Assembly: GCA_034429475.1 (NCBI GenBank) | Contig: DAOUGD010000250.1 | Coordinates: 21,527-85,526 of the forward strand | Direction: 5' to 3' | DNA from: Anaerolineae bacterium | GTDB lineage: Bacteria > Chloroflexota > Anaerolineae > B4-G1 > SLSP01 | Length of the DNA: 64,000 nt | Notes under the pieces: generated by a model | Seen by the model: the letters and a program-made list of their open reading frames with translations, nothing else | Database searches by the model: none | What the model was told of the DNA's origin: nothing | Program-made: the position numbers and the translations under genes | Shown: piece by piece, positions 3,614 through 64,000 of the stretch | How positions within the stretch are numbered: position 1 is the stretch's first letter | Layout: every line of letters begins with the position of its first letter

Positions 3614-5115
<1,502 letters not shown>

Positions 5116-5137
5116 GTCGTTCCGCAAAATCCAATTG

Positions 5138-5180
5138 TGTACTGCGTATTGCTTCCCCCGGCAATACGCAGTACTTTTTT
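5138..5180 (+). terminator. rho-independent terminator after ahcY
   Basis: Perfect 14-bp stem gtactgcgtattgc/gcaatacgcagtac with loop ttcccccg, followed by TTTTTT. Confidence 0.8.
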
Positions 5181-5429
5181 AAAGACCCTTCAGTTTTGCG
5201 GGGCATTTTCTTTTCGCGCAAACTTTGGTAAAATAGATGAAATTGAATACTATCAATACTCCGCGTTGCGGAGACAACGATTGTAAGCAGTTTTCACGTG
5301 GGATGATGGAATCAACCACGTTGTGGGAGTCCCGGCAGGGTCTCCCTTATGCATAAGCCATAGTCAGATGGAATTACATCCAAATGCAGAACAATGGGTG
5401 ATAATGAGATAGTGGAATTTTGACCGAAG

Positions 5430-5466
5430 CGGCTATGGCTTATGCGACCATAGCCGTTTTTGTTTG
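5430..5466 (+). terminator. intrinsic terminator/attenuator immediately upstream of the recX RBS
   Basis: Stem cggctatgg/ccatagccg followed by TTTTTGTTTG. The 5' arm can alternatively pair with cataagccatag at 5352..5363. Confidence 0.6.
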
Positions 5467-5477
5467 AGAAAGGGACA

Positions 5478-6122
5478 ATGGCAGGAACAATTACTGCCCT
5501 GGAAGCGCAGAAACATTCAACAGAACGAGTCAACGTGTACCTTGAAGGCGAGTTCGCTTTTGGTCTGGCCGTGATTCACGCGGTCAACCTCCGACCGGGG
5601 ATGTGGTTATCCGATGAAGACATTGCCGCGCTGCGCACCGCCGACGAAGTGGAGCGCGCGCGGGAAAGAGCATTGGATTATCTATCCTATCGCCCCCGCA
5701 GTGTGGCCGAGGTACAACGCTACTTACTGGAACGTGATTTTTCTGCGTCGGCAGTAGAGGATGTGTTGCAGGGATTGCAGCGTGTGGGGCTGGTGGATGA
5801 TGTCATCTTCGCCCAATACTGGCGAGACAACCGGGAACAGTTTCGTCCCCGGGGGAAACCGGCCCTGGTACAAGAATTACAGCAAAAGGGCGTGCAATCG
5901 GCCGATATCCAGGCAGCTCTGACAGATTACGACGAAGTGACCGCAGCCCGGCGTGTGGCTGAAGAGCAGGGTCGGCGTTTGAAACATCTTCCCCCGGAGG
6001 TGTTCAAGCGGCGACTGATTCAGCGTATGGCGCGGCGCGGTTTCGCGTATGACCTCATCCAGGAAGTCTTAGCCACTGTTCCCTTTCTCCAGTCTAACTC
6101 TGAAGAAAGCGAGGAACTTTGA
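5478..6122 (+). CDS. recX: regulatory protein RecX
   Basis: RecX three-helix repeat family similarity throughout. RBS GAAAGGGA precedes the ATG at 5478. Confidence 0.85.
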   Translation: MAGTITALEAQKHSTERVNVYLEGEFAFGLAVIHAVNLRPGMWLSDEDIAALRTADEVERARERALDYLSYRPRSVAEVQRYLLERDFSASAVEDVLQGLQRVGLVDDVIFAQYWRDNREQFRPRGKPALVQELQQKGVQSADIQAALTDYDEVTAARRVAEEQGRRLKHLPPEVFKRRLIQRMARRGFAYDLIQEVLATVPFLQSNSEESEEL

Positions 6123-6123
6123 C

Positions 6124-7653
6124 ATGGAATGGATACTCTATATCGTGTGTTTGATCGTCGGATTGGCTGCGGGTGGCTTTGCCGGGTATCGGCTGCGGCA
6201 ACAGCACTACCAGCAGGAAATGGGCAACCTGGAAGGTATGCGCACCCGGTTGCTCGAAGAGGCAGAGAAACAGGCGCGGGATACCGTGCTCAACGGCAAG
6301 GACGAAGCGCTCAAGATGCGGCGCGAGGCCGAAGCTGAGCTGGCGCAACGCACCCAACAGTTTCGCCGTGAAGAAGAACGGCTACAAAGCCGCCGCGAGC
6401 AGTTAGACGCGCGTCAGGAAAAAATTGACCGCCGGGAGCAAGTGCAGAACAAGCGGCAGAGCACCATGGATAAGCGATGGGGCGAATTGGAGAAGCTGGA
6501 AAGCCAGCACCGGGAAGAACTGGAGCGGGTGGCGAGCCTCAGCACGGAAGAAGCCCGCGCGATCCTGTTGGAACAAGTCGCCGGCGAAACGCGCCAGGAT
6601 ATGGCGCGCGTCATCCGCGAAGAAGAAATGCTCGCCAAGGAAGAGGCCGACCGCCGCGCGCGCCACATTATCACCACCGCCATTCAACGGCTGGCTTCCG
6701 AGCAGGTGGCCGAGCTGACCACCACCACGCTGGAAATCCCTTCCGACGAACTCAAAGGGCGGATCATCGGGCGCGGCGGGCGCAACATCAAGCTCTTCGA
6801 GCAGAAAGCGGAAGTGGACGTGATCGTGGACGACACGCCGGAGATGATCACCATCTCCTCCTTCAACCCCATCCGCCGCGAGACCGCCGCGCGCGCGATG
6901 CACCGGCTGGTGGCCGATGGGCGTATCCACCCGGCGCGCATCGAGAAGCTGCTGGAAAAGGCGCGCAAAGAAGTGGAAGACATCATGAAGGAGAAGGCCG
7001 AGGCCGCCGTCTACGAAGCGGAAGTCCCGACCCTGCACCCCGAATTGATGAAGTTGTTGGGGCGTTTGTACTTCCGCACCAGCTACGGCCAGAACCAACT
7101 GGGGCACGCGGTAGAAGTCGCCAAGCTGGCGAGCCTGTTGGCCTCCGAATTGGGTGCCAACGCCGAAATCGCCCGCCTGGGCGGGCTGCTGCACGACATC
7201 GGCAAGGCGGTGGACTTTGAGGTGGAAGGCACGCACGCCACCCTGGGCGCGGAGTTGGCCCGGCGGTATGGGGTGTCGGACGCCGTCGTCAACTGCATCG
7301 AGTCGCACCACCACGAGGCCGAGGCGCAGACGATGGAAGCCGTCATCGTGGAAGCCGCCGACGCCATCTCCGGCGCGCGGCCCGGCGCGCGGCGCGAGAG
7401 CCTGGAGCATTACATCAAGCGCATCCGCACGTTGGAAGACGTGGCGCGCTCCTTCAAGGGCGTCGAGGAATCCTACGCCATCCAGGCCGGGCGCGAAATT
7501 CGCCTGATCGTCCGCCCCGGCGAGGTGGACGACCTGGACGCGGTGCGGCTCTCCCGCGACGTAGCGCGCAAGATTGAGGAATCCATGGAATATCCCGGCC
7601 AGATCAAAGTGACCGTGATCCGCGAAACACGCGCCGTGGAATACGCCAAATAA
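6124..7653 (+). CDS. rny: ribonuclease Y
   Basis: N-terminal TM helix, a coiled coil, KH domain (GRIIGRGGRNIK) and HD domain (LLHDIGK). 2-nt gap after recX. Confidence 0.95.
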   Translation: MEWILYIVCLIVGLAAGGFAGYRLRQQHYQQEMGNLEGMRTRLLEEAEKQARDTVLNGKDEALKMRREAEAELAQRTQQFRREEERLQSRREQLDARQEKIDRREQVQNKRQSTMDKRWGELEKLESQHREELERVASLSTEEARAILLEQVAGETRQDMARVIREEEMLAKEEADRRARHIITTAIQRLASEQVAELTTTTLEIPSDELKGRIIGRGGRNIKLFEQKAEVDVIVDDTPEMITISSFNPIRRETAARAMHRLVADGRIHPARIEKLLEKARKEVEDIMKEKAEAAVYEAEVPTLHPELMKLLGRLYFRTSYGQNQLGHAVEVAKLASLLASELGANAEIARLGGLLHDIGKAVDFEVEGTHATLGAELARRYGVSDAVVNCIESHHHEAEAQTMEAVIVEAADAISGARPGARRESLEHYIKRIRTLEDVARSFKGVEESYAIQAGREIRLIVRPGEVDDLDAVRLSRDVARKIEESMEYPGQIKVTVIRETRAVEYAK

Positions 7654-7667
7654 CGAAAGAAGCCCCA

Positions 7668-7708
7668 ACCAAAAACCGGGATTTTTCAAAATCCCGGTTT
7701 TTTATTTT
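7668..7708. terminator. bidirectional terminator between convergent rny and the GNAT gene
   Basis: Stem aaaaccgggattt/aatcccggtttt followed by T-run TTTTTATTTTT. The stop codon of the minus-strand GNAT gene lies within the T-run. Confidence 0.8.
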
Positions 7709-8634
7709 TCAATTTCACGCCGCCATATCTCAAGCGATGTCTGGTAGCTCAACGCGAACGTCTTTTGCAAGTCGGGCAGGGCGTTATCAGGCAGCAGCAA
7801 GTCCACCGCGATGAAGCCGGCTGGCGCCGCCAGCGCCGCCAGCGCCGCCACAGCGGGCGTCAACGGCGCGGCGGGCGGTAGCCAGGCGTAGCCGTCGGCC
7901 TGCTGCGGATCGCGCAGTTGCTCGCGCAAGCCCAGCGCCACGGGGACACCGTTGAGCGCGCCTTGCCAGACCCAGCGGCGCAGATCGCTCCAACCGGGCA
8001 GCGCGAGTGTGGGCCAAAGCGGCTCCCAATCCAGCGCGCTGCATTGATAGCGCCCCACGCGCAACGCCAGCGCCGCCGGCGGTCCGAGGTTCTCCATAAG
8101 CCGCGACAGGCCGGGCGGCGGCGTCCCACCGGCGGCGAGCTGCATCTCTGAGGCCGCGAGCCACGGCACGAACTGTGTGCGCCGGTAGAAAGCGCGTGCT
8201 TCCGACTCCGGCTGCGTAGTCAGCGCGGGGAGGCCCTGTTGGCGAGCTAATTCCAGGCCGGCGTCCAGCAGGGCGCGGCCCACGCCCTGCTGCTGCCAAT
8301 CCCGGTGAACGTAGAGCACGGAAAGGTGCAGCGCGGGACCGAACGGCAGCGGCTCAACGTTAATGTGATATTCCGCCTCGCCGACAATGCGACCGTCCAC
8401 TTCCGCTACCAGCGGCGCAGGGCCGGCGCGCAGCAGCGCGTTCAGGTGGATGGCGCACAGTTCGACGCTCATCCACGGGCCGCCGCTGTACCAGCGGCCA
8501 AAGAGGTCGAGCGCGGCGTAGGGAACGGCCTGGCGCGTGTGCGGATCGCGCCACTCGTCCACGGTGCTGCAATGCACCGCAGTGATGGCGGCTGCGTCGT
8601 CCAGGCGAGCCGGGCGGACGTTAATCTTCGGCAT
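7702..8634 (-). CDS. GNAT-family N-acetyltransferase with a C-terminal extension of unknown function
   Basis: GNAT motif A QQQGVGRALL in the N-terminal half. ATG at 8632..8634 overlaps ubiX by 14 nt. Confidence 0.7.
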   Translation of the reverse strand: MPKINVRPARLDDAAAITAVHCSTVDEWRDPHTRQAVPYAALDLFGRWYSGGPWMSVELCAIHLNALLRAGPAPLVAEVDGRIVGEAEYHINVEPLPFGPALHLSVLYVHRDWQQQGVGRALLDAGLELARQQGLPALTTQPESEARAFYRRTQFVPWLAASEMQLAAGGTPPPGLSRLMENLGPPAALALRVGRYQCSALDWEPLWPTLALPGWSDLRRWVWQGALNGVPVALGLREQLRDPQQADGYAWLPPAAPLTPAVAALAALAAPAGFIAVDLLLPDNALPDLQKTFALSYQTSLEIWRREIEK

Positions 8635-9238: not shown

Positions 9239-9329
9239 TATAACGGCGTGTGAGGCAACTGCCAAACCGGGTGACGTTTGGTTTTCCGGTGGAAGGTGCT
9301 ATACTTTTCCAGTTCATTAGGAATCAGAA

Positions 9330-9407
9330 ATAAGAAATGGGAAATAAGTAATGAGTAATCAGAGTGATTATTCATTACTCGTTACTCATTACTCGTTACT
9401 CATTTCC
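9330..9407. repeat. heptamer-unit palindromic repeat array (units ACTCRTT / AATGAGT)
   Basis: taagtaatgagtaatcagagtgattattcattactcgttactcattactcgttactcatt: four tandem ACTCRTT heptamers preceded by their reverse complements. Confidence 0.7.
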
Positions 9408-9441
9408 GGTTTCCGATCATCACCTACTGGGGGCAAGAATT

Positions 9442-10290: not shown

Positions 10291-10296
10291 ACAATT

Positions 10297-10358
10297 TCTC
10301 AACGGATTAAACGGATTCTAACGGATTAGCTTCCGTTGAATCCGTTCAATCCGTTGAG
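10297..10358. repeat. family-A hairpin repeat element (AACGGATT units)
   Basis: Inverted repeat tctcaacggattaaacggattctaacggatt / aatccgttgaatccgttcaatccgttgag. Confidence 0.85.
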
Positions 10359-10382
10359 GTTATTTTAGGAAGGAGATGAGCT

Positions 10383-11708
10383 ATGGAGAAACACGAAGAG
10401 ACGAAACTGAATTATGGCCGGACTTTTCTGATTGGGTTTGGCTTTTTTGGCATCAGTGTGATGTGGACGCTCTACAACGCCTACGTGCCCATTTTCTTGC
10501 AAGCTGGGCATCCCGCTTTCAACGCGCCGGGGGAATTGGGATTCGGGTTCAAGCCGGGGCTGACCGGCTTCATTATGACGCTCGACAACATCGCCGCCTT
10601 CTTCCTGCTGCCGTTCATCGGCGTGTGGTCGGATCGGGTGTGGACGCGCTTCGGGCGGCGGATGCCCTTCATTCTCGTGCTCGCGCCCATCTCGATTGCA
10701 GCGTTCATCTTGATTCCGGCGGCGGTGGGGATGATTCCCGTCGCATTGAACGGGCAAACGGCGCAACTGGGCAGCCAACTGGCGTTCTTTATGCTCGCCA
10801 TCGGCCTGTTCCTGCTGGCGATGGCCGGTTTCCGCACGCCCGTCATCGCGTTGATGCCCGACCTCACGCCCAGCCCGCTGCGCTCCCAGGCCAACGGCAT
10901 CATCAACATGATGGGCGGTATCGGGATGGTAGTGGCGACATTGGGCAGCGGCTTTCTCTACAAAATCGGGCGGATCGGGCCGTTCGTCTTCGGCGGCGTG
11001 TTGATGGTCGCGGCGGTGGCGATGCTGTTCTTCTTCGTCAAGGAAAAGCAGACCTTTGAGGCGATGGCCGACGAGAAGAAGGGCTTCAACGTGCTGCGCG
11101 ACCTGTATCTGGCCGTCAAACGCCTGCCGCCGGCCGGAGTGCGCAGCCTCTTCTTCCTGATGGGGGCGATTTTCTGCTGGTTTGTGGGCTACAACGCCGT
11201 CGAGACCTTTATGACCTCCTACGGCGTCAGTGAGTTGGAAATGCCGGCCAACACCGCGCCGTATCTGCTGACGGCGGCCTCACTCACGTTTCTGCTGTTC
11301 TCCGTGCCGGCGGGTTACATCGGCGCCAAGTTTGGGCGGCGGCGCGTCATCATCACCGGGCTGAGCGTGTTCGGCGTGCTGCTGCTGCTCAATTTCTTCC
11401 TGCGCAATGCCACCCTCGTCTGGCCGATCCTGGCAATTGGCGGGATGGGCTGGTCGCTGGTCAACATCAATTCGCTGCCGATGGTGGTGGATTCCGCCGC
11501 CTCCGACGCGGACGTGGGAACGTACACCGGGCTATACTACATCGCCTCGCAGTTTGCGGCGGTGGTCGGCCCCACCCTCAACGGCTACATCGTCGAGTGG
11601 TTCCATAGCGATTACAACCTCATCTTCATCGTGACGCCGTTCTTCTTCTTGATGGCGGTGCTGTGTATGCTCCAGGTGACGCGCGGCGAAGCGAAAACAG
11701 GCAACTGA
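10383..11708 (+). CDS. MFS transporter, glycoside/cation symporter-like
   Basis: About 12 predicted TM helices and MFS_2-type sequence features. RBS GGAAGGAG upstream. Confidence 0.85.
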   Translation: MEKHEETKLNYGRTFLIGFGFFGISVMWTLYNAYVPIFLQAGHPAFNAPGELGFGFKPGLTGFIMTLDNIAAFFLLPFIGVWSDRVWTRFGRRMPFILVLAPISIAAFILIPAAVGMIPVALNGQTAQLGSQLAFFMLAIGLFLLAMAGFRTPVIALMPDLTPSPLRSQANGIINMMGGIGMVVATLGSGFLYKIGRIGPFVFGGVLMVAAVAMLFFFVKEKQTFEAMADEKKGFNVLRDLYLAVKRLPPAGVRSLFFLMGAIFCWFVGYNAVETFMTSYGVSELEMPANTAPYLLTAASLTFLLFSVPAGYIGAKFGRRRVIITGLSVFGVLLLLNFFLRNATLVWPILAIGGMGWSLVNINSLPMVVDSAASDADVGTYTGLYYIASQFAAVVGPTLNGYIVEWFHSDYNLIFIVTPFFFLMAVLCMLQVTRGEAKTGN

Positions 11709-11713
11709 TTTTT

Positions 11714-11763
11714 TCTCAACGGATGGAACGGATTTTCCGTTCAATCCGCTCAATCCGTTGAGT
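11714..11763. repeat. family-A hairpin repeat element
   Basis: tctcaacggatggaacggatt ttccgttcaatccgctcaatccgttgag. Confidence 0.85.
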
Positions 11764-11781
11764 TATTTTTAGGAAAAGAAA

Positions 11782-12588: not shown

Positions 12589-12657
12589 AGACGTAAAACG
12601 TAAAACGTGAAACGTGAGGCTTTTACAGATGAAGCCATCACGTTTCACGTTTTATGT
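12589..12657. repeat. family-B hairpin repeat element (ACGTRAA heptamers)
   Basis: acgtaaaacgtaaaacgtgaaacgtgagg...tcacgtttcacgttttatgtttc, lying between convergent genes. Confidence 0.85.
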
Positions 12658-16570: not shown

Positions 16571-19045
16571 ATGAGCAATCCATTGACACTTTGGTATACC
16601 CATCCCGCCGTCCATTGGACGGAAGCCTTGCCCATCGGCAACGGGCGGCTGGGCGCGATGGTGTTCGGCGGCGCGCCCGTCGAGCGGCTGCAATTGAACG
16701 AGGACACGCTCTGGTCGGGCCATCCGAAGGATTGCGATAACCCGGACGCGCTGCCGTATCTGCCGCAGGTGCGGGAGGCGGTCTTTGCCGGGGATTACGT
16801 CCGCGCCGACGAACTGATAAAACACATGCAGGGGCCGTTCAACCAGAGCTATCTGCCGCTTGGGGACTTGATCCTGGATTTCTCAACGGATTTAACGGAT
16901 GGAACGGATTCTGATCCGTTAAATCCGTTGAATCCGTTGAGCTATCGCCGCTCTCTGGATTTGGACACGGCGTTGGCGGAGACGACGTACACGGTGGATG
17001 GCGTCACCTTCACGCGGCAGGTTTTCGCTTCCGCGCCGGACGACGCCATCGTGATACGGCTGGCGTGCGACAAACCGGGCGCGTTGGCCTTCACCGTCGC
17101 CTTGAACAGCCCGCTGCATTTCCACACGACGCCTTTGCCCTCCGGGGCAGCCGCCCAACCGGGTCTGCTGATGACCGGCAAAGCGCCGCAGCACGTAGAC
17201 CCCAGCTACTTGCCGTCTGACAATCCGGTGATCTATGGGTCAACGGATTCAACGGATGGAACGGAACAGAATCCGTTAAAATCCGTTCAATCCGTTGAGG
17301 GAATGACGTTTGCCGCTTTGCTGTCGGCACGTGTGACGGGCGGCGTGGTGACATCGGAGGGCGACCGGCTGCGTGTCGCCGGTGCGGATGAGGCGGTACT
17401 GCTGTTGTGCATGGCGACGAGCTTCAATGGCTTTGACCACTCCCCCGCTTTTGAAGGCAAAGACCCGGTGACGTGCGTCGCCCACACGATGGCGGCGATT
17501 CTCGACAAGCCTTACGCCATGCTGCTACAAGCGCACCTCGATGATTACCAGCCGCTTTTCCGCCGCGTGGAATTGGACCTGGGTTCGCTCGGCAACGAGG
17601 GCTTGCCCACCGACGAGCGCATCCGGCAGTACCACGCCGCTCCCGACCCGGCGCTGGCGAGCCTGCTCTTCCAGTACGGGCGCTACCTGCTCATCGCCAG
17701 CTCCCGGCCGGGGACGCAGCCCGCCAATTTGCAGGGGATTTGGAACGACATGGTGCGCCCGCCGTGGAGCAGCAATTGGACAGTCAACATCAACACGCAG
17801 ATGAACTACTGGCCCGCCGAGGTCGCGAATCTGGTGGATTGTCACCTGCCGCTGTTCGACCTCATCCGCGCCCTGAGCGTCAACGGCGCGAAGACGGCGC
17901 GGATCAACTACGGCTGCCGGGGCTGGTGCAGCCATCACAACGCCGACGTGTGGGCGCAGTCCGCGCCGGTGGGGAACTACGGCGGCGGGCAGCCGATGTG
18001 GGCCAACTTCCCCTTGAGTGGCGCGTGGTTGTGTACGCACCTGTGGGAGCATTACGCCTTCGGCGGCGACGCGGCCTTCCTGCGCGACGTGGCCTATCCG
18101 CTGATGCAAGGCGCGGCGGAGTTCTGCCTGGACTGGCTGATTGAGGACGGCGCAGGCCATCTGGTCACGTGCCCGGCGATCTCCTGCGAGAACGAATTCG
18201 TCACCGAAGACGGCGTGACGGCGCAGACGAGTATGGCGACGACGCAGGATATGGCGATCATCGGGCAGCACCTCGCCAACTGCCTCGCCGCCGCCGGGGT
18301 GTTGGGGATTGAGGACGAGTTCACCGCGCGCGCACGCGCCGCGCTGCCGCGCCTCTACCCTTTCCAGGTGGGGCGCAAGGGCGACTTGCAGGAGTGGGCC
18401 AGGGATTGGGACAGCGCCGACCCGCACCACCGGCACATCTCGCACCTGATGGGGCTGCACCCCTTCGCGCTGATCACCGAGGGGACGCCCGCGCTGTTTG
18501 AGGCGTGCAAACGCTCGCTCGACCTGCGCGGCGACGAGAGCACGGGCTGGTCTATGGCGTGGAAGGTCAACTGCTGGGCGCGGCTCAAGGACGGCGACCG
18601 CGCGTTCAAAGTGCTGTCGCAGCTCTTCACGCCGGTGGACGCCAGCGAGGGGAACTGGCAGCGGGGCGGCGTCTATCCCAACCTGTTCGACGCGCACCCG
18701 CCCTTCCAGATTGACGGCAACTTCGGCGCGACGGCCGGCATCGCGGAGATGTTGGTGCAGAGTCACACGGGCGTCATCGAGCTACTGCCCGCGCTGCCCT
18801 CGGCCTGGCCGAACGGGAGTGTGAAGGGGTTGCGCGCGCGGGGCGGGTTTGAGGTGGACCTGGCGTGGCGGGATGGGAAGGCGACGGAGGCGACGATACG
18901 CTCGTTGTTGGGGAAGGAGTGCCGGGTAGCGGGGGGTAAGCTCAGCATCATCTGTGATGGGAAACAGGTTTTGATACAGCAGGATGGAAATGGCGGCGCA
19001 TTTTCCACCGAGGCAGGGAAAGTCTATCACGTAGCAGTGGGATAA
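16571..19045 (+). CDS. glycoside hydrolase family 95 (alpha-L-fucosidase-like) containing two in-frame repeat-element insertions
   Basis: GH95 N-terminal motifs [20 protein letters not shown] and LPLGDL. Family-A elements at 16881..16942 and 17240..17299 are translated in frame. Confidence 0.9.
16881..16942. repeat. family-A hairpin element embedded in frame in the GH95 CDS
   Basis: tctcaacggatttaacggatggaacggattctgatccgttaaatccgttgaatccgttgagc, encoding [20 protein letters not shown]. Confidence 0.85.
17240..17299. repeat. family-A hairpin element embedded in frame in the GH95 CDS
   Basis: gtcaacggattcaacggatggaacggaacagaatccgttaaaatccgttcaatccgttgag, encoding [20 protein letters not shown]. 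Confidence 0.85.
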
Positions 19046-21106: not shown

Positions 21107-22012
21107 ATGATTATGCCCAAAGATTTCCTAACCTTCCTAGATTTCACTCAAGCCGACCTCGTCGCGCTCCTCGACCTCGCCGGCACGCTGCGCGAGGCGT
21201 GGGAAGCTAAACGGCTTCCGCAGGCTCTCGCGGGCAAGTCCATCGCTCTGATTTGGGACGCGGAGGGGTTCCGCAACCGCGTCTCCTTTGAGTTGGGCAT
21301 CGCGGCGATGGGCGGGATTGCGGTGCAAATCCCCGGCAAGCTCGACGAACGCGAGTTCATCGAGGACGTGGCCCGCTACCTCGACAACTGGTTTGACGGC
21401 ATCGTGTCGCGCGCGCGGCGGCACGACCACATGCTGCGGCTTGCAGCGGCGGCGCAGCCCCCCGTCATCAATGCGCGGACGGACTTCAATCATCCGTGCG
21501 AGATCCTGGGCGATCTGGCGTACATCCGCGCCCGGCGCGGCAGCCTGGACGGGTTGCGCGTGGCGTTTGTGGGCGAAGCCACGAATCTCTGCCATCCCTG
21601 GTTCGAGGCAGCGGCGCGGCTGCCGATCCACGTCACGCAGATTTGCCCGACGGGGTACGAGGTGAGCGCCGAGTTCATCGCGCAGGTGCAGCGGGACGCC
21701 GTCGGCACGGTGGCCGTGAGCCACGAGTTGGACGCGAGCCTCAAAGACGCCGACGTCGTCTACACCGACTGCTGGCCGCGTCGCAGCAGCCCGGAAGACG
21801 CCGAGCGCGTCGCCCGGCAATTTCTGCCCTACCAGATCACTGCCGAAAAGCTGCGCCTTGCCGCGCCGGACGTTCTCTTCCTGCCCTGCCCGCCTGTCAC
21901 GCGCGGCGAGGAAGTCTCGGAGGATGCAATGGCGACCCTGGGCCATCACGTCTATGAAGCGAAAGCCTATTTGCTGCACGCGCAAAACGCGGTGTTGAGC
22001 ATGCTCCTGTAG
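21107..22012 (+). CDS. divergent aspartate/ornithine carbamoyltransferase-family protein
   Basis: Transcarbamylase-fold similarity, but the key motifs are altered: STRTR becomes GFRNR, HPxQ becomes HPCE, and HCLP becomes FLPC. Confidence 0.7.
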   Translation: MIMPKDFLTFLDFTQADLVALLDLAGTLREAWEAKRLPQALAGKSIALIWDAEGFRNRVSFELGIAAMGGIAVQIPGKLDEREFIEDVARYLDNWFDGIVSRARRHDHMLRLAAAAQPPVINARTDFNHPCEILGDLAYIRARRGSLDGLRVAFVGEATNLCHPWFEAAARLPIHVTQICPTGYEVSAEFIAQVQRDAVGTVAVSHELDASLKDADVVYTDCWPRRSSPEDAERVARQFLPYQITAEKLRLAAPDVLFLPCPPVTRGEEVSEDAMATLGHHVYEAKAYLLHAQNAVLSMLL

Positions 22013-22045
22013 TCCGGGTTATAATGGTATTGGGAGGGATAAACG

Positions 22046-22213
22046 ATGCAAACTCAAGAATTGTGTCTTTTGATGCCGGAAGACTTGGGATTCGGGATGT
22101 GGGCGCAGGATATGGCGAATGAGGATAGTGTGGACTACGTCAATCGTATCCGAGCGACTGCCAACAGGCCTCTGCACGAAATGGTTGAAGAGTTGTCGCA
22201 ATGGCAACTGTAA
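22046..22213 (+). CDS. small ORF (55 aa), possibly a VapB-like antitoxin remnant
   Basis: RBS GGGAGGG upstream. Overlaps the PIN fragment start by 13 nt, as toxin-antitoxin pairs typically do. No family recognised. Confidence 0.25.
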   Translation: MQTQELCLLMPEDLGFGMWAQDMANEDSVDYVNRIRATANRPLHEMVEELSQWQL

Positions 22214-24528: not shown

Positions 24529-24600
24529 GGACGCAGGTTTTCGCAGATTCACGCAGATAATTTTTAGAAAATCAGCGTTCATCCGCGTTTATCTGCGTCC
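24529..24600. repeat. family-C hairpin repeat element (ATCTGCGT decamer units)
   Basis: cgcagattcacgcagataat...cgtttatctgcgtcc. Confidence 0.8.
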
Positions 24601-26979: not shown

Positions 26980-26996
26980 TCGAAGACCATAGAGAA

Positions 26997-27063
26997 ATCG
27001 GTAATTCGCAATTCGTAATTCGCAATTCGTAATTCGCAATTCGTAATTCGTAATTCGCCATTC
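26997..27063. repeat. direct heptamer tandem array (TAATTCG/CAATTCG, 9 copies)
   Basis: gtaattcgcaattcgtaattcgcaattcgtaattcgcaattcgtaattcgtaattcgcc. Confidence 0.85.
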
Positions 27064-27079
27064 ACAGGAGACCCATTCA

Positions 27080-29539: not shown

Positions 29540-30415
29540 ATGACGGTTTTTTCCAATCCCCACATTCAATGGCGGCTGGACATCGCCCGGCAATTGGCCG
29601 AGCGGATTCGCGCCTTTTCCGGCGTGCAGGCCATTATCGTCGGCGGCTCGGTGGCGCGCGGGTACGCCGACGCTTACTCCGACCTGGAGCTGCCCATCGT
29701 CTGGGACACGCTCCCCACGGACGAGACGCGCCTGGCCGTCGTCGCCGCCTTGCAGGGCGAGTTCCTCTACGGTTACGATGGCCCGGCGCAGGAAGATCAA
29801 CTGTTGATCAACGGCTTCCAGGTTGACCTGTGGCACAACACCGTGTCCGAAGAAAACGCCGTGTTCAAGGCCGTCTTGCAGGAGTACAGCACGGGCCTGG
29901 GCGAAAGCAACTTCCTGGACACCGTCCGCGCCTGCATCCCGCTGTATGGCGAGGCTCTCATCCAGGAATGGAAGCGGCTGGCGGCGCAGTATCCCGACGA
30001 ACTGGTCTTAAAAAACATCCGGGAAACCCTCCCCACGTTTGAGGCCGGCCAGTTAACCGTGTTGGCCTATCGGGAAAACCCCACCGCCTTCTACGCGGCG
30101 ATCAGCCGGCAGCAACAGGCCATGTTCATGGTCTTGTTGGCCTTAAATCGTCTCTATTTCCCCACGTTCAAGTGGATGTATCAAGTCTTGGAGACCATGC
30201 GGATCAAGCCCGCAGCCGTGGAACAACGCTTCCGGCAGACGTTCACAGCTTCCTACGCCGAGGCCGTGCAGGACACCACCCAGCTCCTCCACGAAACCCT
30301 GGCGCTGGTGGAACAGACTTTCCCGCAGGTAGATACCGCCGCCGTCCACCGCCGGTTGGCCTACGCGCGGCGGATGTATTCAGATGGGACGCAGATAAAC
30401 GCCGATGAACGCTGA
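29540..30415 (+). CDS. nucleotidyltransferase-domain protein (ANT/KNTase-like)
   Basis: NTase motif GGSVARGYADAYSDLEL. The 3' end of the CDS is formed by the left arm of a family-C element. Confidence 0.7.
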   Translation: MTVFSNPHIQWRLDIARQLAERIRAFSGVQAIIVGGSVARGYADAYSDLELPIVWDTLPTDETRLAVVAALQGEFLYGYDGPAQEDQLLINGFQVDLWHNTVSEENAVFKAVLQEYSTGLGESNFLDTVRACIPLYGEALIQEWKRLAAQYPDELVLKNIRETLPTFEAGQLTVLAYRENPTAFYAAISRQQQAMFMVLLALNRLYFPTFKWMYQVLETMRIKPAAVEQRFRQTFTASYAEAVQDTTQLLHETLALVEQTFPQVDTAAVHRRLAYARRMYSDGTQINADER

Positions 30416-30585
30416 TTTTTAAAAAATAGAATTTACGCAAAGAGCGAGATTTTACCGCAGAGTACGCGGAGGTCGCAGAGATTTTATAGGCACTCGGCGT
30501 TCTCAGCGGCCTCTGCGGTAAAAAAAGAGATGATTATGTAAGTCCTGAAAAAATTATCTGCGTCAATCCGCGTGAATCTGCGTCC
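30386..30585. repeat. split family-C element carrying a nested CGCAGAG-type hairpin
   Basis: The left arm ggacgcagataaacgccgatgaacgctgatt (30386..30416) is identical to the left arm at 60345. The right arm ttatctgcgtcaatccgcgtgaatctgcgtcc lies at 30554..30585. Between them is the inner hairpin ttaccgcagag...ctctgcggtaa. Confidence 0.6.
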
Positions 30586-33008: not shown

Positions 33009-33066
33009 TACGCAGATTCACGCAGATAGTATAAAATCTGCGTGAATCTGCGTTTATCTGCGTCCC
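33009..33066. repeat. family-C hairpin repeat element
   Basis: acgcagattcacgcagata gtataaa atctgcgtgaatctgcgtttatctgcgtcc, with an extra unit at 33097..33107. Confidence 0.85.
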
Positions 33067-51190: not shown

Positions 51191-51217
51191 CAGCGCGATT
51201 TGGAAATCGCGGCTACA
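51191..51217. repeat. short hairpin cgcgatttggaaatcgcggctaca (family I), 3' of uvrA
   Basis: A near-identical copy lies at 55297..55322. Confidence 0.6.
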
Positions 51218-54125
51218 ACACCCCCCGCAAATACCCCCCCGTATACGAGTCTTGCACTTCCGCCACCGCCTCCGGCGTCCCCTGCGCCACCAGCCGCCCG
51301 CCGGCGTCGCCGCCGTCCGGCCCCAGGTCTATGATCCAGTCCGCAGTCTTGATCACGTCCAGGTGATGCTCGATCACCAGGACGGTGTGGCCCGCGTCCA
51401 CCAGGCGGTTCAGGCTGAGCAGCAGCTTCTCGATGTCGGCGGCGTGCAGGCCCGTCGTCGGCTCGTCGAGGATGTAGAGGTTGTGCGCGCCGCGCTTCAG
51501 CTTCCCCAGCTCGTGCGCCAGCTTGACGCGCTGCGCTTCCCCGCCGGAGAGCTTCGTCGCCGGGTGGCCCAGCTTGAGGTAGCCCAGGCCCAGGTCGCGC
51601 AGCGTGCGCAGTTTGTGGACGACGCTGCGCGGGACGTCTCGCGTCTCCTCGAAGAAAGCCACCGCTTCCTCAATGGACAGGTCCAGCACGTCGGCGATGC
51701 TCTTGCCGCGGTACGTCACTTCCAACGTCTCGGCGTTGTAGCGCGCGCCCTTGCACACCGGGCATAGCGTCTCCACGTCCGCCATAAACTGCAAGTGCGT
51801 GTTCAGGTAGCCCTCACCCGCGCACTCCTCGCAGTGGCCTTCCTTCACGTTGAAGCTGAACCGCGAGGCGGTGTAGCCTCGCGCCCGCGCCTCCTCCGTC
51901 TCCGCGAACAGGCGCCGGATCGCGTCGTACACACCGATGTACGTCGCCGGGTTCGAGCGCGGCGTGCGCCCGATGGGCGACTGGTCAATGTCTATGATGT
52001 CGGTCACATACTCCACCCCTTCCACGGCGCGATGCTTGCCCGGCAAGGTACGGTGGTCATGCAGGGTGGCGTAGAGCTTCTTGTAGAGGATCTCGTGGAT
52101 GAGGCTGCTCTTGCCGCTGCCGCTCACGCCCGTCACGCAGATGAAGAGGCCCAACGGGAACGTCACGTCGAGGTCGCGCAGGTTGTTCTCCCGCGCGCCG
52201 CGGATCACCAGATTGTGCCCGTTGGGATGGCGGCGCATCTCCGGCAGGGGGATGCGCGCGGCCCCATCGAGGTATTGCCCCGTGAGCGAGGCCGGATCGT
52301 GCAGCACCATCTCCACCGGGCCGCACGTCACCACCTCGCCGCCGTGTTCGCCCGGCCCCGGCCCCATCTCGATGAGCGTGTCGGCGGCGCGGATGATCGC
52401 CTCGTCGTGCTCCACCACCACCACACTGTTGCCCAGGTCGCGCAGGCGGTGCAGCGTCTCCACCATCTTGCGCGTGTCGTAGGGATGCAGGCCGATGGTC
52501 GGCTCGTCGAGCACGTACAACATCCCCATCAGGTCGGAGCCAATCTGCGTGGAGAGGCGGATGCGCTGCGACTCGCCGCCGGAGAGCGTGTTCGACGGGC
52601 GGTTGAGCGTCAGGTAGTCCACGCCGATGTCGAGCAGCAGGCGCACGCGGCGGACGATCTCGCGGACGATCTGCGTGCCGGCCTCGCGCTTCTTCTCCGG
52701 GATGGGGACGGCTTCCAGGAAGGCGATGAGGTCGGCAAAGGCCATGTCGCCCAGCTCGTGGATGTCCTTCCCGGCGATGGTGACGAGGAAGCGCTGCGGT
52801 TTGAGTCGCTTGCCGCCGCAGTCGGGGCAGGTGTGCTCCACCATCACCTTCTTGAGCCACTCGTCCATCCAGGTGTTGAAGCGGCCCTCTTTGCGGTAGC
52901 GGCGGTAGTTGCGCTCGATAAAATTGATGATGCCCCCAAACGACATCTCGCGCCCTTCCCACCGCTCGCCGGTCTTCGCGCCGGGCGGGATCACCACCGG
53001 GAACTTCGCGCCCTTTGTCCCGTAAAAGAGGAGGTCCACAATCGCCGGCGGAAGGTCTTTGAACGGCGTGTCGAGGCTGAAGCCATAGGCCTGCGCCAGG
53101 CTATAGGCCATCCGCCCCGACCACGAATTCTTGTCGGGATTGAGCGCCTCCTTCGCCAACGCACCGCCCGCGATACTGCGGTGCGGGTCGAGGATGAGCA
53201 GCTCCGGGTGCACACTGCGATACGTCCCCAGCCCCAGGCACGTCACGCACGAGCTAGAGCCAGACGGCAAGTTGAAGCTGAAATACTGGGCTTCCATCTC
53301 GCCCTTGACCATCTGATGCTCCGGGCACGCCAGTTCTACGGGACGCAGATTTTCGCGGATGAACGCAGATTTTTCTGTATTTATCTGCGTTACTCTGCGT
53401 TCATCTGCGTCCAAAATATGGATGCTGATGAAGCCCTCCCCCAGCAGCAGACCGTGTTCGAGGGAGGCGAGGATCTGCTTGTCTTTGCCCGGATGGATGG
53501 CGAAGCGGTCTACGATGACATCAATCTGGTACGTCGTGTCCTCGTCCAGGTCAACGGGTTCGCTGAAGTCTACGAAGCGCCCGTCAATGTAGGCGCGGCG
53601 GTAGCCCCGCGTGCGCACCTCGTCGAAGAGATAGGCGTAGTCCTCGCCGTAGATCTTGAAGACGGGCGCGCGCACCTCCACTTCCGTCCCGGCGGGCAGC
53701 GTCAGCAGGTGGGCGAGCATCTGCTCCGGGCTGCGCGTGGGGACTTCGGCGCCGCAGTACGGGCAGTGCGCCACGCCGATGGTCGCGTAGAGCATCCGCA
53801 GGTAGTCGTAGATGTCGGTCATCGTGCCCACCGTCGAGCGCGGGTTGCGTACGCCGGTCTTCTGCTCGATGGAGATGACGGGCGACAGCCCATAGACAAA
53901 GTCCACGTTGGGCTTCTTGAGCTGCGCGATGTACTTCTTCGCAAACGTGGACATAGACTCCAGGAAGCGCCGCTGCCCCTCGGCGTAGACCGTGTCAAAC
54001 GCCAACGACGACTTCCCCGACCCGCTCACCCCGGTGATCACTACCAGTTGGTTCCGCGGAATCTCTACCGTGATGTTCTTCAAGTTGTGTTCTTTTGCGC
54101 CTTGTACGGTTATCGTGTCTCGCAT
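51213..54125 (-). CDS. uvrA: excinuclease ABC subunit A (canonical class I) with an embedded repeat element
   Basis: Two ABC modules, zinc fingers and the UvrB-binding domain. A family-C element at 53342..53412 is translated in frame as [22 protein letters not shown]. Confidence 0.95.
53342..53412. repeat. family-C hairpin element embedded in frame in uvrA
   Basis: gacgcagattttcgcggatgaacgcagattttt...ttatctgcgttactctgcgttcatctgcgtcc. Confidence 0.85.
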
Positions 54126-55837: not shown

Positions 55838-55862
55838 TCACCGCCGGCGCAATCTGTTGATT

Positions 55863-55915
55863 AAAACGTAAAACGTGAAACGTAAGGCTGTTACGTTTCA
55901 CGTTTTACGTTTTAT
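55863..55915. repeat. family-B hairpin repeat element
   Basis: aaaacgtaaaacgtgaaacgtaagg ctg ttacgtttcacgttttacgtttt. Confidence 0.85.
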
Positions 55916-58728: not shown

Positions 58729-58743
58729 CCGCTCTGTCAATGT

Positions 58744-58804
58744 CTCAACGGATTGAACGGATTGAACGGAAAAATGTCCGTTAAATTCCGTTGAATCCGT
58801 TGAG
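58744..58804. repeat. family-A hairpin repeat element
   Basis: tctcaacggattgaacggattgaacgg aaaaatgt ccgttaaattccgttgaatccgttgag. Confidence 0.85.
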
Positions 58805-58866
58805 AAAAACAATCTTCTTCATTGTTGGGGTTGTGCCCCCGGTTCGGTAACACGCTGAGGAATTCT

Positions 58867-60344: not shown

Positions 60345-60416
60345 AGAAAGATTAGGACGCAGATAAACGCCGATGAACGCTGATTAAAAAAGATTATCTG
60401 CGTGAATCCGCGAAAA
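60345..60416. repeat. family-C hairpin repeat element
   Basis: ggacgcagataaacgccgatgaacgctgatt aaaaaag attatctgcgtgaatccgcgaaaatctgcgtcc. Confidence 0.85.
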
Positions 60417-60443
60417 TCTGCGTCCTGATGGCGTTTTCAAAAT

Positions 60444-61764: not shown

Positions 61765-64000
61765 CTAGCTTAACCCCATCTCCACCGTCGCCGGCTCCAG
61801 CACCTTCTGCAAGAACTGCCCCGTATAGCTCTCCCCCACCAGCGCCACTTTTTCCGGCGGCCCTTCGGCGATGATGTAGCCGCCGGCGTCGCCGCCTTCC
61901 GGCCCCAGGTCGAGCAGCCAGTCGGCGGTCTTGATCACGTCCAGGTTGTGCTCCACCACGATGACGGTGTTGCCGGCGTCGGTCAGGCGGTGCAGCACGT
62001 CCAGCAGCTTTTGGATGTCGGCAAAGTGCAGGCCCGTCGTCGGCTCGTCCAGGATGTAGACGGTGCGCCCGGTGGCGACGCGCCCCAATTCCTTCGCCAG
62101 CTTGACGCGCTGCGCCTCCCCGCCGGAAAGCGTCGTCGCGCTCTGCCCCAACTTGATGTAATCCAGCCCCACGTCGTGCAATGTTTGCAATTGCCGGGAG
62201 AGGACCGGGTGCGCCGCGAAGAAACCCAGCGCTTCCTGCACGTCCATATCCAGCACCTCGGCGATGTTCTTGCCCTTGTAGCGGATTTGCAGCGTCTCGC
62301 GATTGAAGCGCGTGCCCTTGCACTCCTTGCACGTCACCCACACATCTGCCAGGAAGTGCATCTCGATGCGCCGCTGGCCGTGTCCCTTGCACGCCTCGCA
62401 GCGCCCACCCTTGACGTTGAAGCTGAACCGCCCGGCGCCGTAGCCGCGCATCTTTGCCTCCGGCGTGGACGCGAAGACTTTGCGGATTTCGTCAAAGACG
62501 CCCACGTAGGTTGCCGGGTTCGAGCGCGGCGTGCGCCCGATGGGGTCTTGTGTGATGTCAATGACTTTGTCCAAATGCTCCAGCCCATCCAGCCGGTCGT
62601 AAGGGCCGGGGCGCGTCTCGGCGCGATTGAGGTCGCGCGCCAGCGCCGGGAACAGCGTTTCGGCGACGAGGCTGCTTTTGCCGCTGCCGCTCACGCCGGT
62701 GACGCAGGTGAACACGCCTAGCGGGAAACGCGCGTCCACCTGCTTGAGATTGTGCAGGCGCGCGCCCCGCAGGATGAGGCTGCCGTTCTGCGGCGTCCGC
62801 CGCCCGCCGTTGGGCGACGTGACCGCCAGCTCGCCGCTCAGGTAGCGCCCCGTGAGCGACTCCGGGTTCCCCGCCACCTCTGCCGGTGTGCCGGATGCGA
62901 CAACTTCGCCGCCCAGAACGCCCGCGCCCGGCCCCAGGTCTACGAGCCAGTCGGCGTCGTGCATCGTCTCGGCGTCGTGTTCCACCACGAGCACTGTGTT
63001 GCCCATGTCGCGCAGTTGCAGCAGCGTGTCGAGCAGGGCGCGGTTGTCGCGGGCGTGCAGGCCGATGGACGGCTCGTCCAGGATGTAGAGCACGCCCACC
63101 AGTCCGCACCCGATCTGGCTCGCCAGGCGGATGCGCTGCGATTCGCCGCCGGACAGCGACGGCGCGGGCCGGTCGAGGGTGAGGTAATGTAGGCCCACAT
63201 TGAGCATGAATTGCAAGCGGTCGCGGATTTCCTTGAGGACTTCGCCGCCGATCTGCAACTGCTCCGCGTCAAAGATGCCGTACAGTCCCGTCACCCAGGC
63301 CTGCGCGTCGGAAATGGTCATCTGGCTCACTTCCGTGACCGTCTTGCCGCCGACGGTGACGCCGCGCGCTTCCGGGCGCAGCCGCGCGCCGCCGCACGAC
63401 GGGCAGGGCTGCTCGCTCATAAAGCTGCCGTACCAGCGCTTCGTGTACTCCGAGTGCGTCTGGTGGAACAGGCGTTTGATGTGGTAAACGATGCCTTTCT
63501 CCGTGCGGTTGGTTTCGCCTGACCACGTGCTGTCCTGGTTTTCGGCGTGAAATTCAAAATGGATTTTCTCGCTGCCCGACCCGTAAATGACGACGTTGCG
63601 GAAGGCCTCCGGCAAGTCCTGCCACGGCATTTCCAGGTCAACCCCATAGTGCCGCGCCAACGAATCCAGATGGTGGGTCTGCCACTTGTTCTTCTTTTTG
63701 CGGATGTTGCCATACCAGCGCAGCGCGCCATCTATAATGGATTTTGTCGGGTCGTGGACGATGAGCGCGGGATCCACTTCCAGCTTCGTCCCCAGACCGT
63801 TGCACTCTGGGCACATCCCCACCGGCGAGTTGAAGCTGAACAGCGCGGGCGACAATTCGGGGAAGCTGATGCCGCAGTGGACGCAGGCATGATGTTCGCT
63901 CAGCGTCAGCTCCTCTTTGTCTGCCACGTCAATCACCACGACGCCCTCGCCAGCCTTCAACGCAGTCTCCACTGAATCTATCAGCCGCGTGTGGAAGTCG
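61765..64000 (-). CDS. uvrA: second canonical UvrA (excinuclease ABC subunit A), 5' end beyond the window
   Basis: C-terminal ABC module, zinc fingers and the UvrB-binding/insertion domains are present. The ORF continues past position 64000. Confidence 0.9.
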   Translation of the reverse strand, partial: DFHTRLIDSVETALKAGEGVVVIDVADKEELTLSEHHACVHCGISFPELSPALFSFNSPVGMCPECNGLGTKLEVDPALIVHDPTKSIIDGALRWYGNIRKKKNKWQTHHLDSLARHYGVDLEMPWQDLPEAFRNVVIYGSGSEKIHFEFHAENQDSTWSGETNRTEKGIVYHIKRLFHQTHSEYTKRWYGSFMSEQPCPSCGGARLRPEARGVTVGGKTVTEVSQMTISDAQAWVTGLYGIFDAEQLQIGGEVLKEIRDRLQFMLNVGLHYLTLDRPAPSLSGGESQRIRLASQIGCGLVGVLYILDEPSIGLHARDNRALLDTLLQLRDMGNTVLVVEHDAETMHDADWLVDLGPGAGVLGGEVVASGTPAEVAGNPESLTGRYLSGELAVTSPNGGRRTPQNGSLILRGARLHNLKQVDARFPLGVFTCVTGVSGSGKSSLVAETLFPALARDLNRAETRPGPYDRLDGLEHLDKVIDITQDPIGRTPRSNPATYVGVFDEIRKVFASTPEAKMRGYGAGRFSFNVKGGRCEACKGHGQRRIEMHFLADVWVTCKECKGTRFNRETLQIRYKGKNIAEVLDMDVQEALGFFAAHPVLSRQLQTLHDVGLDYIKLGQSATTLSGGEAQRVKLAKELGRVATGRTVYILDEPTTGLHFADIQKLLDVLHRLTDAGNTVIVVEHNLDVIKTADWLLDLGPEGGDAGGYIIAEGPPEKVALVGESYTGQFLQKVLEPATVEMGLS

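Follow-up and report, generated by a model that had tools for sequence, protein, structure and literature searches.

A dispersed palindromic repeat read in frame within uvrA of an Anaerolineae bacterium shares its arms with cassettes of GxxExxY nuclease genes

We analysed a 64,000-nucleotide stretch of a contig from an Anaerolineae bacterium (GenBank assembly GCA_034429475.1, contig DAOUGD010000250.1, positions 21,527 to 85,526; hereafter the window), in which the gene for the DNA repair protein UvrA contains a short hairpin element. Our results demonstrate that a palindromic repeat dispersed in the genome also lies in frame within uvrA, that the gene carrying it is still under purifying selection, and that arms of the same kind are the terminal inverted repeats of small cassettes whose only cargo is a gene for a GxxExxY protein. 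For the insert, the best reading is that of a passenger tolerated by the protein, not of an adaptation. We consider it likely that it occupies a permissive linker in this capacity and that the hairpin itself originated from such a cassette.

The core element lies at positions 53341 to 53412 (72 nt) and is read on the minus strand as UvrA L238-262. Arm A (53341-53370, plus strand) consists of three 10-nt units, GGACGCAGAT TTTCGCGGAT GAACGCAGAT; it is followed by an AT-rich loop of 12 nt, TTTTCTGTATTT (53371-53382), and by arm B (53383-53412, minus strand), whose three inverted units read ATCTGCGTTA CTCTGCGTTC ATCTGCGTCC on the plus strand. All units are built around CGCNGAT. A preliminary description of this DNA had correctly recognised the repeat and quoted an in-frame peptide that agrees with the translation, but its start was off by one and its length was given as 71 nt. 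The coding-strand sequence of the element is (TT)G GAC GCA GAT ... CTG CGT CC(C), that is, 24 codons without a stop in the frame in use; this copy is open in three of the six frames, and the remaining copies in the window in one or two. With its flanks ATTTTG and CGTA, which are typical of the hairpin family described below, it forms a segment of 81 nt (53337-53417, minus strand, codons I237-V263) that is unlike element-free alleles over its whole length. The GCGTCCAAAAT flank is seen again in other copies, and T-rich loops like this one are found in other members of the family.

As RNA the uvrA copy gives a hairpin of dG -36.8 kcal/mol (z -7.8), and as single-stranded DNA one of -24 kcal/mol (z -8.0). 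The element-bearing allele was recovered in independent JGI, ENA, and NCBI assemblies, and it is therefore not an assembly artefact. No Rfam family reached its gathering score anywhere in the window, so no intron that would remove the insert was found there, and a peptide of 24 aa is too short for an intein.

Searching the window with a degenerate 30-nt half-arm pattern (23 specified bases, up to three mismatches) yielded nine arms, compared with none in 100 dinucleotide-preserving shuffles. Intergenic copies of the same family are located at 24529-24600 (72 nt), at 30387-30585, at 33009-33065, where the left arm is truncated (two plus three units), and at 60355-60425 (71 nt). Two of these had been placed correctly before (24529 and 33009), a third had been given as 60345, and the copy at 30387 had been missed. 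The loop of this last copy contains a nested hairpin (30450-30523) whose units (CCGCAGAG / CGCGGAG) belong to a third family, indicating that the loops of these elements accept further insertions.

The host gene (51213-54125, minus strand) is an intact open reading frame (ORF) for a full-length UvrA homologue of 970 aa, residues 2-970 of which match solved UvrA structures with 1019 bits (969 aa). The Pfam domains UvrA_inter (UvrB-binding, 132-238) and UvrA_DNA-bind (the DNA-binding insertion, 307-410) are present, the Walker and signature motifs (GSGKS, LSGGE) and the zinc cysteine ligands are invariant, and the protein belongs with the class I full-length UvrA proteins. Its zinc module 1 is of the C-C-C-H type, with the ligands C121-P-Y-C124 upstream and C267-P-E-H270 downstream, invariant in this orthologue group. 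The insert begins at the final residue of the UvrB-binding domain (238) and stops four to five residues short of C267. The earlier placement before the first zinc-finger CPxxC is thus right in that the insert precedes the second half of zinc module 1, but the motif there is C-P-E-H and not CxxC, and the first half of the module lies upstream.

An AlphaFold2 model built from 100 orthologues (mean predicted local distance difference test score, pLDDT, 86.5; predicted template modelling score 0.79) puts the insert, as the suggested structural check had asked, in a low-pLDDT linker. Residues 241-255 and 257-263 have pLDDT values below 50 and lie between the strand 232-238 and the zinc module. Since the rest of the model is confident, the insert is predicted to be a disordered surface tether that joins two folded modules and is compatible with the fold.

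A second UvrA gene is located at 61765-64000 (minus strand), its 5' part lying beyond the end of the window, and the host gene is one of at least two UvrA homologues. Calling it essential, as had been done, was too strong given this second gene; uvrA is dispensable in the absence of DNA damage. The second copy had been named as a comparison and is without the element; it is 46% identical to the host UvrA, has a canonical C-V-H-C zinc motif, and its linker is 16 aa shorter. On the sister contig L001, the syntenic position (264-2807) encodes an 847-aa UvrA-like protein without the UvrB-binding domain.

The presence of two genes raises the alternative that the insertion inactivated the copy studied here and that it is decaying as a paralogue redundant with the second UvrA. 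Per residue, the second UvrA does score higher against solved UvrA structures (970 bits over 732 aa), and the C-P-E-H motif replaces the CxxC expected in zinc module 1. However, the motif is common to dozens of element-free orthologues, the ORF is intact, its zinc ligands and every Walker and signature motif being conserved, and the structural model is confident outside the insert. Moreover, the ratio of nonsynonymous to synonymous substitution rates (dN/dS) amounts to 0.15 when the window allele is compared with the element-bearing allele of a 93% identical relative, and 0.12-0.15 between element-bearing and element-free alleles. The gene with its element is still under purifying selection, and we regard its decay as highly improbable.

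Closely related alleles with and without the element were found in the 90% identity cluster of the window protein. P0121 and P0125 in this cluster carry the element, whereas P0123, P0124, P0126, and P0127, which share 95-96% identity with the window protein when the linker is set aside, lack it and have the linker HITADSPPPSTVYRLPSTC(P/L)HN instead. This element-free linker is homologous to those of the outgroups P0003 and P0009, which indicates that the element-free state is the older one. Alignment with orthologues, the check proposed at the outset, therefore confirmed that the segment is an insertion: the linker is hypervariable and relatives without the element exist.

The insertion did not simply lengthen the protein, as had been proposed. 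After the element, native sequence restarts with GAA CTG GCG TGC CCG GAG CAT CAG ATG GTC AAG, the counterpart in P0004 (L006) being GAG CTT TGC TGC CCG GAG CAT CAC ATG GTC AAA. The 81-nt block I237-V263 occupies the place of about 21 unrelated codons in P0004, so that the element and its flanks substitute for native linker codons and the net change is only +3 aa relative to P0004 and +14 aa relative to P0124 (970 aa with the element versus 967, 961, 960, and 956 aa).

The distribution of the element among relatives does not follow the rest of the gene. P0002 and P0129, at 93% identity, carry it with two of the 72 nt different, and a neighbour-joining tree calculated without the linker places the element-free group nested within the element-bearing ones with 100% bootstrap support. 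Along the gene, the window sequence is nearer to L001 (encoding P0002) than to L119 (encoding P0124) only around codons 161-280. Because the allele is common to two lineages and missing from relatives with higher overall identity, it is most simply explained as a linker variant with the element that lineages exchanged through homologous recombination. A decayed copy was found in P0006 (81-82% identical), where site, orientation, frame, and loop are all the same, whereas its 91% identical sister P0007 has none; the P0006 copy may be a second hit or an old shared allele, T-rich loops of its type being common in the family. For the intergenic copies no pair of filled and empty sites was found, L001 being rearranged around uvrA and without any of them.

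In 40 orthologues, the linker is the most variable part of UvrA, about 11-50 aa long and without conserved sequence, and odd sequences are to be expected there. On this ground, the segment might be a native, lineage-specific linker that resembles the repeat by chance or even served as the source of the other repeats. This explanation is refuted by several observations: both arms fit the 23-base family pattern (arm A with no mismatch, arm B with one) that shuffled sequence never produced, GC content drops from 64% to 47% at the element, the linker of relatives at 95-96% identity is unrelated to the element and homologous to outgroup linkers, and identical sequence occurs in unrelated phyla and genes.

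The linker has also taken up repeats of other kinds. In element-free uvrA alleles it consists of a heptamer microsatellite that is translated in all three frames: (CCGTCTA)x4, encoding PSTVYRLPST, in L119 (around 10700-10760), (CCGTATC)x4, encoding PYPVSRIPY, in L007, and a decayed CCGTCTA array in L118. More distant UvrA orthologues contain other low-complexity inserts at this site. Judging from these alleles, the uvrA linker is apparently a repeat hotspot with fast repeat turnover.

To learn about the distribution of the element, 596 Gb of GTDB species genomes were scanned with the exact half-arm pattern (23 bases). The matches listed include more than 108 stretches, a lower bound, where about 0.02 would be expected by chance. 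Many of their hosts belong to the Chloroflexota, and others to the Acidobacteriota, Nitrospirota, Desulfobacterota, Planctomycetota (the anammox bacteria Scalindua, Kuenenia, and Loosdrechtia), Gemmatimonadota, Latescibacterota, Verrucomicrobiota, Cyanobacteria, and Proteobacteria, with one Methanophagales archaeon. The preliminary description had treated the element as a repeat of this genome; it is indeed dispersed here, but it is not private to this genome, being spread across phyla and tied to a nuclease-gene cassette. A literature search with the repeat sequence strings returned primers only.

Most of these matches share the anatomy of the uvrA copy, with an overall length of mostly 60-80 nt (60-82). 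The arms are tandem direct arrays of units and not palindromes themselves, with a CGTC tetranucleotide at each 3' end. In 38 full copies, conservation of the core C-G-C-N-G-A-T reaches at least 95% in the two outer units, whereas the 3-nt spacers (8-55%) and the central N (24-32%) agree poorly between arms and are not complementary. Conserved cores with non-complementary spacers point to selection on repeated units one helical turn apart and not on a perfect hairpin, and this pattern speaks more for a protein that recognises double-stranded DNA than for selection on the hairpin. No target-site duplication was detected: in 201 elements, direct repeats in the flanks were as frequent as in shuffled flank pairs, and the flanks show an inverted logo, A-T-N|...|N-A-T.

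Pure head-to-tail arrays without an inverted partner, (GGACGCAGAT)n or (GAACGCAGAT)n with up to seven copies, were observed in L084 (2945-3020), L056, L045, L031, and L057, in cyanobacteria, Latescibacterota, Verrucomicrobiota, and a gammaproteobacterium. In L031, the array is enclosed by a long open frame, possibly not a genuine gene.

The commonest gene beside arms in the cross-phylum loci encodes a PD-(D/E)XK protein of about 125 aa (PF13366, PDDEXK_3; TIGR04256, 'GxxExxY protein'), which sits between a left and a right arm as sole cargo. In the Anaerolineae locus L079 (4583-5151), three units are followed by the GxxExxY gene and three inverted units; in L112, five full hairpins flank the gene; a Scalindua locus (L088) has two cassette copies, the second one frameshifted, and a deltaproteobacterial locus (L021) has one. 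In L017 (6826-7310, Planctomycetota), a GxxExxY gene is located within AACAGAT / ATCTGTT arrays with a CGCAGAT hairpin directly adjoining.

For an unbiased sample, 80 GxxExxY loci were picked from metagenome contigs by protein similarity alone, 76 of which had at least 80 nt on each side. With the strict pattern, both arms were found in 49 of the 76 and at least one arm in 68 (89%), compared with 0 and 22 (about 2%), respectively, of 1100 size-matched control positions in the same loci. The units are of the CGCNGAT type in 40 loci and of the CACNGAT type in 26. The cassettes measure 432-665 nt and include a compact class of 436 nt in which the start codon is within the left arm: GGACGCAG ATG AAC GCA GAT TAT CAG GAT TTT AAA. 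The window copy matches the arms of L079, L120, L122, and 50 cassettes in its GGAC end, its 10-nt period, its CGCNGAT-type core, and its inverted, GTCC-ending partner, and Anaerolineae other than the one studied here have such cassettes (L079/L120, P0137). The arms are the terminal inverted repeats of GxxExxY cassettes.

Forms intermediate between cassette and hairpin were also detected. A 147-nt element next to the L021 gene has an interior corresponding to codons 1-28 of that gene (E 1e-12), and shorter remnants of gene ends occur in L114, L099, and L082. The first of these loci is from the Methanophagales archaeon, in which a 158-nt element (4896-5053) with CGCAGAT arms contains remnants of both ends of the GxxExxY gene; this archaeal element points to transfer between domains. 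From these deletion intermediates we infer that the hairpins derive from the cassettes and not the reverse.

The GxxExxY family is large, with 7,995 proteins at E <= 1e-10 in one word-indexed search, many of them on short contigs. It is listed as being of unknown function, with 'multiple transfers, mixed clades' (PMC3424549). By sequence it matched no PDB entry, and PADLOC gave only one weak hit (E = 0.0076) that was not convincing. No description of GxxExxY cassette ends was found in the searchable literature, and an origin of hairpins from nuclease cassettes appears to be undescribed.

[quoted passage not shown] In size, palindromic form, intergenic bias, and 3' CGTC they do recall the CGTC-tagged REPs, a group without a known transposase (PMC3733652); a gene for a Y1 transposase is present in the genome of a relative; and loops accept foreign insertions, as at 30450-30523 in the window. 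However, CGTC-tagged REPs have stems of 8-9 bp and loops of 4-5 nt, unlike three-unit arrays, target-site duplications are lacking, and no transposase was found between or beside the arms in 108 loci. A start codon inside the arm and arms at 89% of the sampled genes indicate that gene and arms form one unit. We judge this explanation unlikely.

Individual candidates were followed and rejected. The Y1_Tnp gene of L007 (21296-21880) is flanked by a REP of its own and not by CGCAGAT units: REP-type hairpins (CCTTCCCGGAAGC...GCTTCCGGGAAGG) lie at 21203-21240 and 21903-22111, a system separate from the CGCAGAT hairpins, which this genome also has (L095 is from the same metagenome-assembled genome, MAG). 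Arm pairs 1.2-4.5 kb apart (L013, L014, L114, L035), considered as an autonomous transposase element, enclose ordinary genes only. A GUGYG-like 'gtgcgctgcgccc' after the arm in L047, L089, and L105 suggested a group II intron, but Rfam found no intron, the neighbours are ordinary genes, and the three loci are from one MAG with a longer shared repeat.

Several points weigh against the insert being a mere passenger of cassette origin. No GxxExxY gene was found in the window or in those contigs of its relatives that could be read. The direction of descent rests on deletion intermediates, and the gene could instead have invaded hairpin loops. Nuclease activity, binding, and transposition are predicted properties for every member of the GxxExxY family. 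The type of unit (CGC or CAC) follows protein similarity weakly (0.642 vs 0.633), so that a tight co-evolution of protein and site is not evident. Finally, the element is identical at 70 of 72 positions between the window and L001, with 23 of 24 third positions conserved against a gene mean of 19.6, and a role of the element at the DNA or RNA level is possible.

Such a role, as an mRNA hairpin that slows ribosomes or is cut by RNase III, or as a DNA array that binds a protein, would agree with the strength of the RNA hairpin, with arms near the family consensus, and with the third-position identity; RNase III is known to act on hairpin elements of 23S rRNA that contain a small ORF (Coxiella intervening sequence, PMC4990558). 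The excess conservation is not significant, however, since 12% of windows do equally well for total identity and 9% for third positions. In addition, the closest relatives manage without the element, the copy at the same site in P0006 has decayed, and intragenic copies elsewhere are at unrelated positions. We consider retention for such a role improbable, and the insert remains best read as a tolerated passenger.

Based on these data we propose the following course of events. Cassette ends are inverted arrays of two or three 10-bp units with the core CGCNGAT and the outer sequence GGAC...GTCC, and the 72-nt hairpin would be a gene-less miniature, a cassette whose interior was deleted. A GxxExxY nuclease would move hairpins and cassettes in trans: it would bind the 10-bp units in their phased arrangement and cleave at the GGAC/GTCC ends, with integration occurring without target duplication. 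One copy would have inserted into the linker between the UvrB-binding domain and zinc module 1; ribosomes would translate through its 72 nt, which have no stop in the frame used, and UvrA would thereby have acquired a hydrophilic stretch of about 25 aa in its surface tether, with the loss of most native linker sequence. Native linker residues would have been lost after the insertion, holding the tether within the usual length range, and the intragenic copies that survive would be those with a length divisible by three, free of stops, and in permissive loops. The step in which the GxxExxY nuclease mobilises the hairpins is put forward tentatively, as possible rather than probable. An equally speculative generalisation would make GxxExxY proteins the nucleases that mobilise a superfamily of very small selfish cassettes found across domains, with phased 10-bp array ends and no target duplication, whose hairpin derivatives may be the unit hairpins of Chloroflexota, Acidobacteriota, Desulfobacterota, Planctomycetota, Nitrospirota, and others, and may have repeatedly added translated peptides to proteins such as UvrA and DnaE.

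Insertion in frame is not limited to uvrA. Long ORFs running through an arm were screened in the cross-phylum loci, with Pfam domains confirmed on both sides, and three further cases were found. In the Anaerolineae genome Co_bin.203 (L011, ORF 4507-7815, minus strand), an insert of 47 aa that includes NRTQINADERRF splits the helix-hairpin-helix (HhH) domain of DnaE, the alpha subunit of DNA polymerase III; it consists of a CGCAGAT arm and what appear to be units of a second family (RTRIDTEKSGFSRIEEE NRTQINADERRF SQSKIRENPSDPLNP). Arm peptides are also read in frame in a TMEM260-like O-mannosyltransferase (L034, GTQMNADERRF) and in a PMT_2 glycosyltransferase (L070, KSAFIRVNLRP). As three 10-nt units equal ten codons, the peptides read from an arm in its different frames are rotations of one another (D-A-D-E-R-R-x-T-Q-I-N).

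The window also contains a second family of elements that has entered an ORF in frame. The GH95 gene (16571-19045) has two in-frame hairpins of AACGGAT units with a period of 8-9 nt, at 16878-16954 and 17235-17312, which encode peptides of 26 and 27 aa and stretch the Pfam N-terminal domain by about 48 aa. The proposal that two distinct families can enter ORFs in frame was borne out by this companion case, where it has happened twice. Intergenic copies of the AACGGAT family are located at 10294-10371, 11735-11775, and 58740-58807. By the resemblance of its units, this family may belong to the same superfamily as the CGCNGAT hairpins. In L186, the arms mix CACGGAT and GAACGGAT units, the latter resembling the AACGGAT family.

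Other short-unit repeats in the window are a 7-nt tandem array of AATTCGT/AATTCGC (26996-27070), arrays of TAAAACG/TGAAACG (12594-12626 and 55862-55894), and a 95-nt hairpin of GAAAT/AAGTAAT-type units (9323-9417). The genome is rich in short-unit repeat elements.

Among known systems, the Rickettsia palindromic elements (RPEs), of about 100-150 bp, are confined to Rickettsia and occur in frame in housekeeping genes (Ogata et al. 2000, 2002, summarised in PMC10969869 and PMC3733652). Like the hairpins described here, they are short palindromes in unrelated housekeeping genes that encode fold-compatible peptides and have no obvious transposase. The uvrA case is a dispersed repeat with intergenic copies found inside a conserved ORF, missing from orthologues, with the frame kept and a position in a loop, and by analogy it can be classed as RPE-like. 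It is set apart from RPE-1 to RPE-10 by its size (72 nt), its unit architecture, and its Anaerolineae host, and the hairpin family differs from RPEs in its length of 60-80 nt, its phased 10-nt units, its occurrence in many phyla and an archaeon, and its link to nuclease cassettes.

The hairpins resemble MITEs (PMC10969869) in their 30-nt inverted arms, small size, and lack of coding capacity of their own, in that gene-less copies share terminal inverted repeats with a longer, gene-bearing form, and in the existence of intermediates with gene-end remnants. The longer relative with the same ends encodes the GxxExxY PD-(D/E)XK protein, which would have to be a transposase of a new kind if it moves the elements. 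Unlike MITEs, the hairpins lack target-site duplications, and instead of a DDE enzyme or another known transposase the long form carries a PD-(D/E)XK nuclease of 125 aa. With the REP/REPIN-RAYT systems and CGTC-tagged REPs (PMC3116915, PMC3733652), they have in common high-copy intergenic palindromes that occasionally occur in ORFs, the CGTC end, and hairpin doublets of about 70-110 nt; they differ in that the arms are direct unit arrays, no RAYT is associated, and stem and loop sizes depart from those of CGTC families. Occasional intragenic REPs, enterobacterial repetitive intergenic consensus (ERIC) sequences, and MITEs are on record (PMC10969869, PMC3733652).

The cassettes recall the intervening sequences (IVSs) of 23S rRNA (Coxiella IVS/S23p, PMC4990558), selfish elements of about 430 nt with an inverted-repeat stem around one small ORF and a sporadic distribution across phyla. 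The IVS ORF, however, encodes a four-helix-bundle protein, and IVSs reside in rRNA helices and are removed by RNase III, whereas the cassette ORF encodes a PD-(D/E)XK protein and the copy without a gene is part of an mRNA and is translated with it. Heptamer repeats (TAACTGA arrays of Beggiatoaceae, Cyanobacteria, and Bacteroidetes, PMC4679880; cyanobacterial short tandemly repeated repetitive sequences, STRR) are likewise tandem identical units found across distant phyla without a known vector, mostly intergenic and restricted in their sites by coding potential. They differ in being 7-nt direct arrays without an inverted partner, GGAC/GTCC ends, or a known associated gene.

In-frame palindromic repeats in housekeeping genes have mostly been viewed as a peculiarity of Rickettsia; here they occur in free-living Anaerolineae and their relatives, in genes for UvrA, DnaE, a GH95 enzyme, and membrane glycosyltransferases. 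Hairpins of this type break assemblies and inflate hypervariable regions of alignments, and annotators should expect them within real genes. The natural element-free and element-bearing uvrA alleles, which are 95% identical, offer a ready comparison for what the peptide costs or contributes. Our findings tie a very large protein family without an assigned function to defined DNA ends, which provides a testable hypothesis for GxxExxY nucleases and may explain why near-identical short repeats are found in distant phyla.

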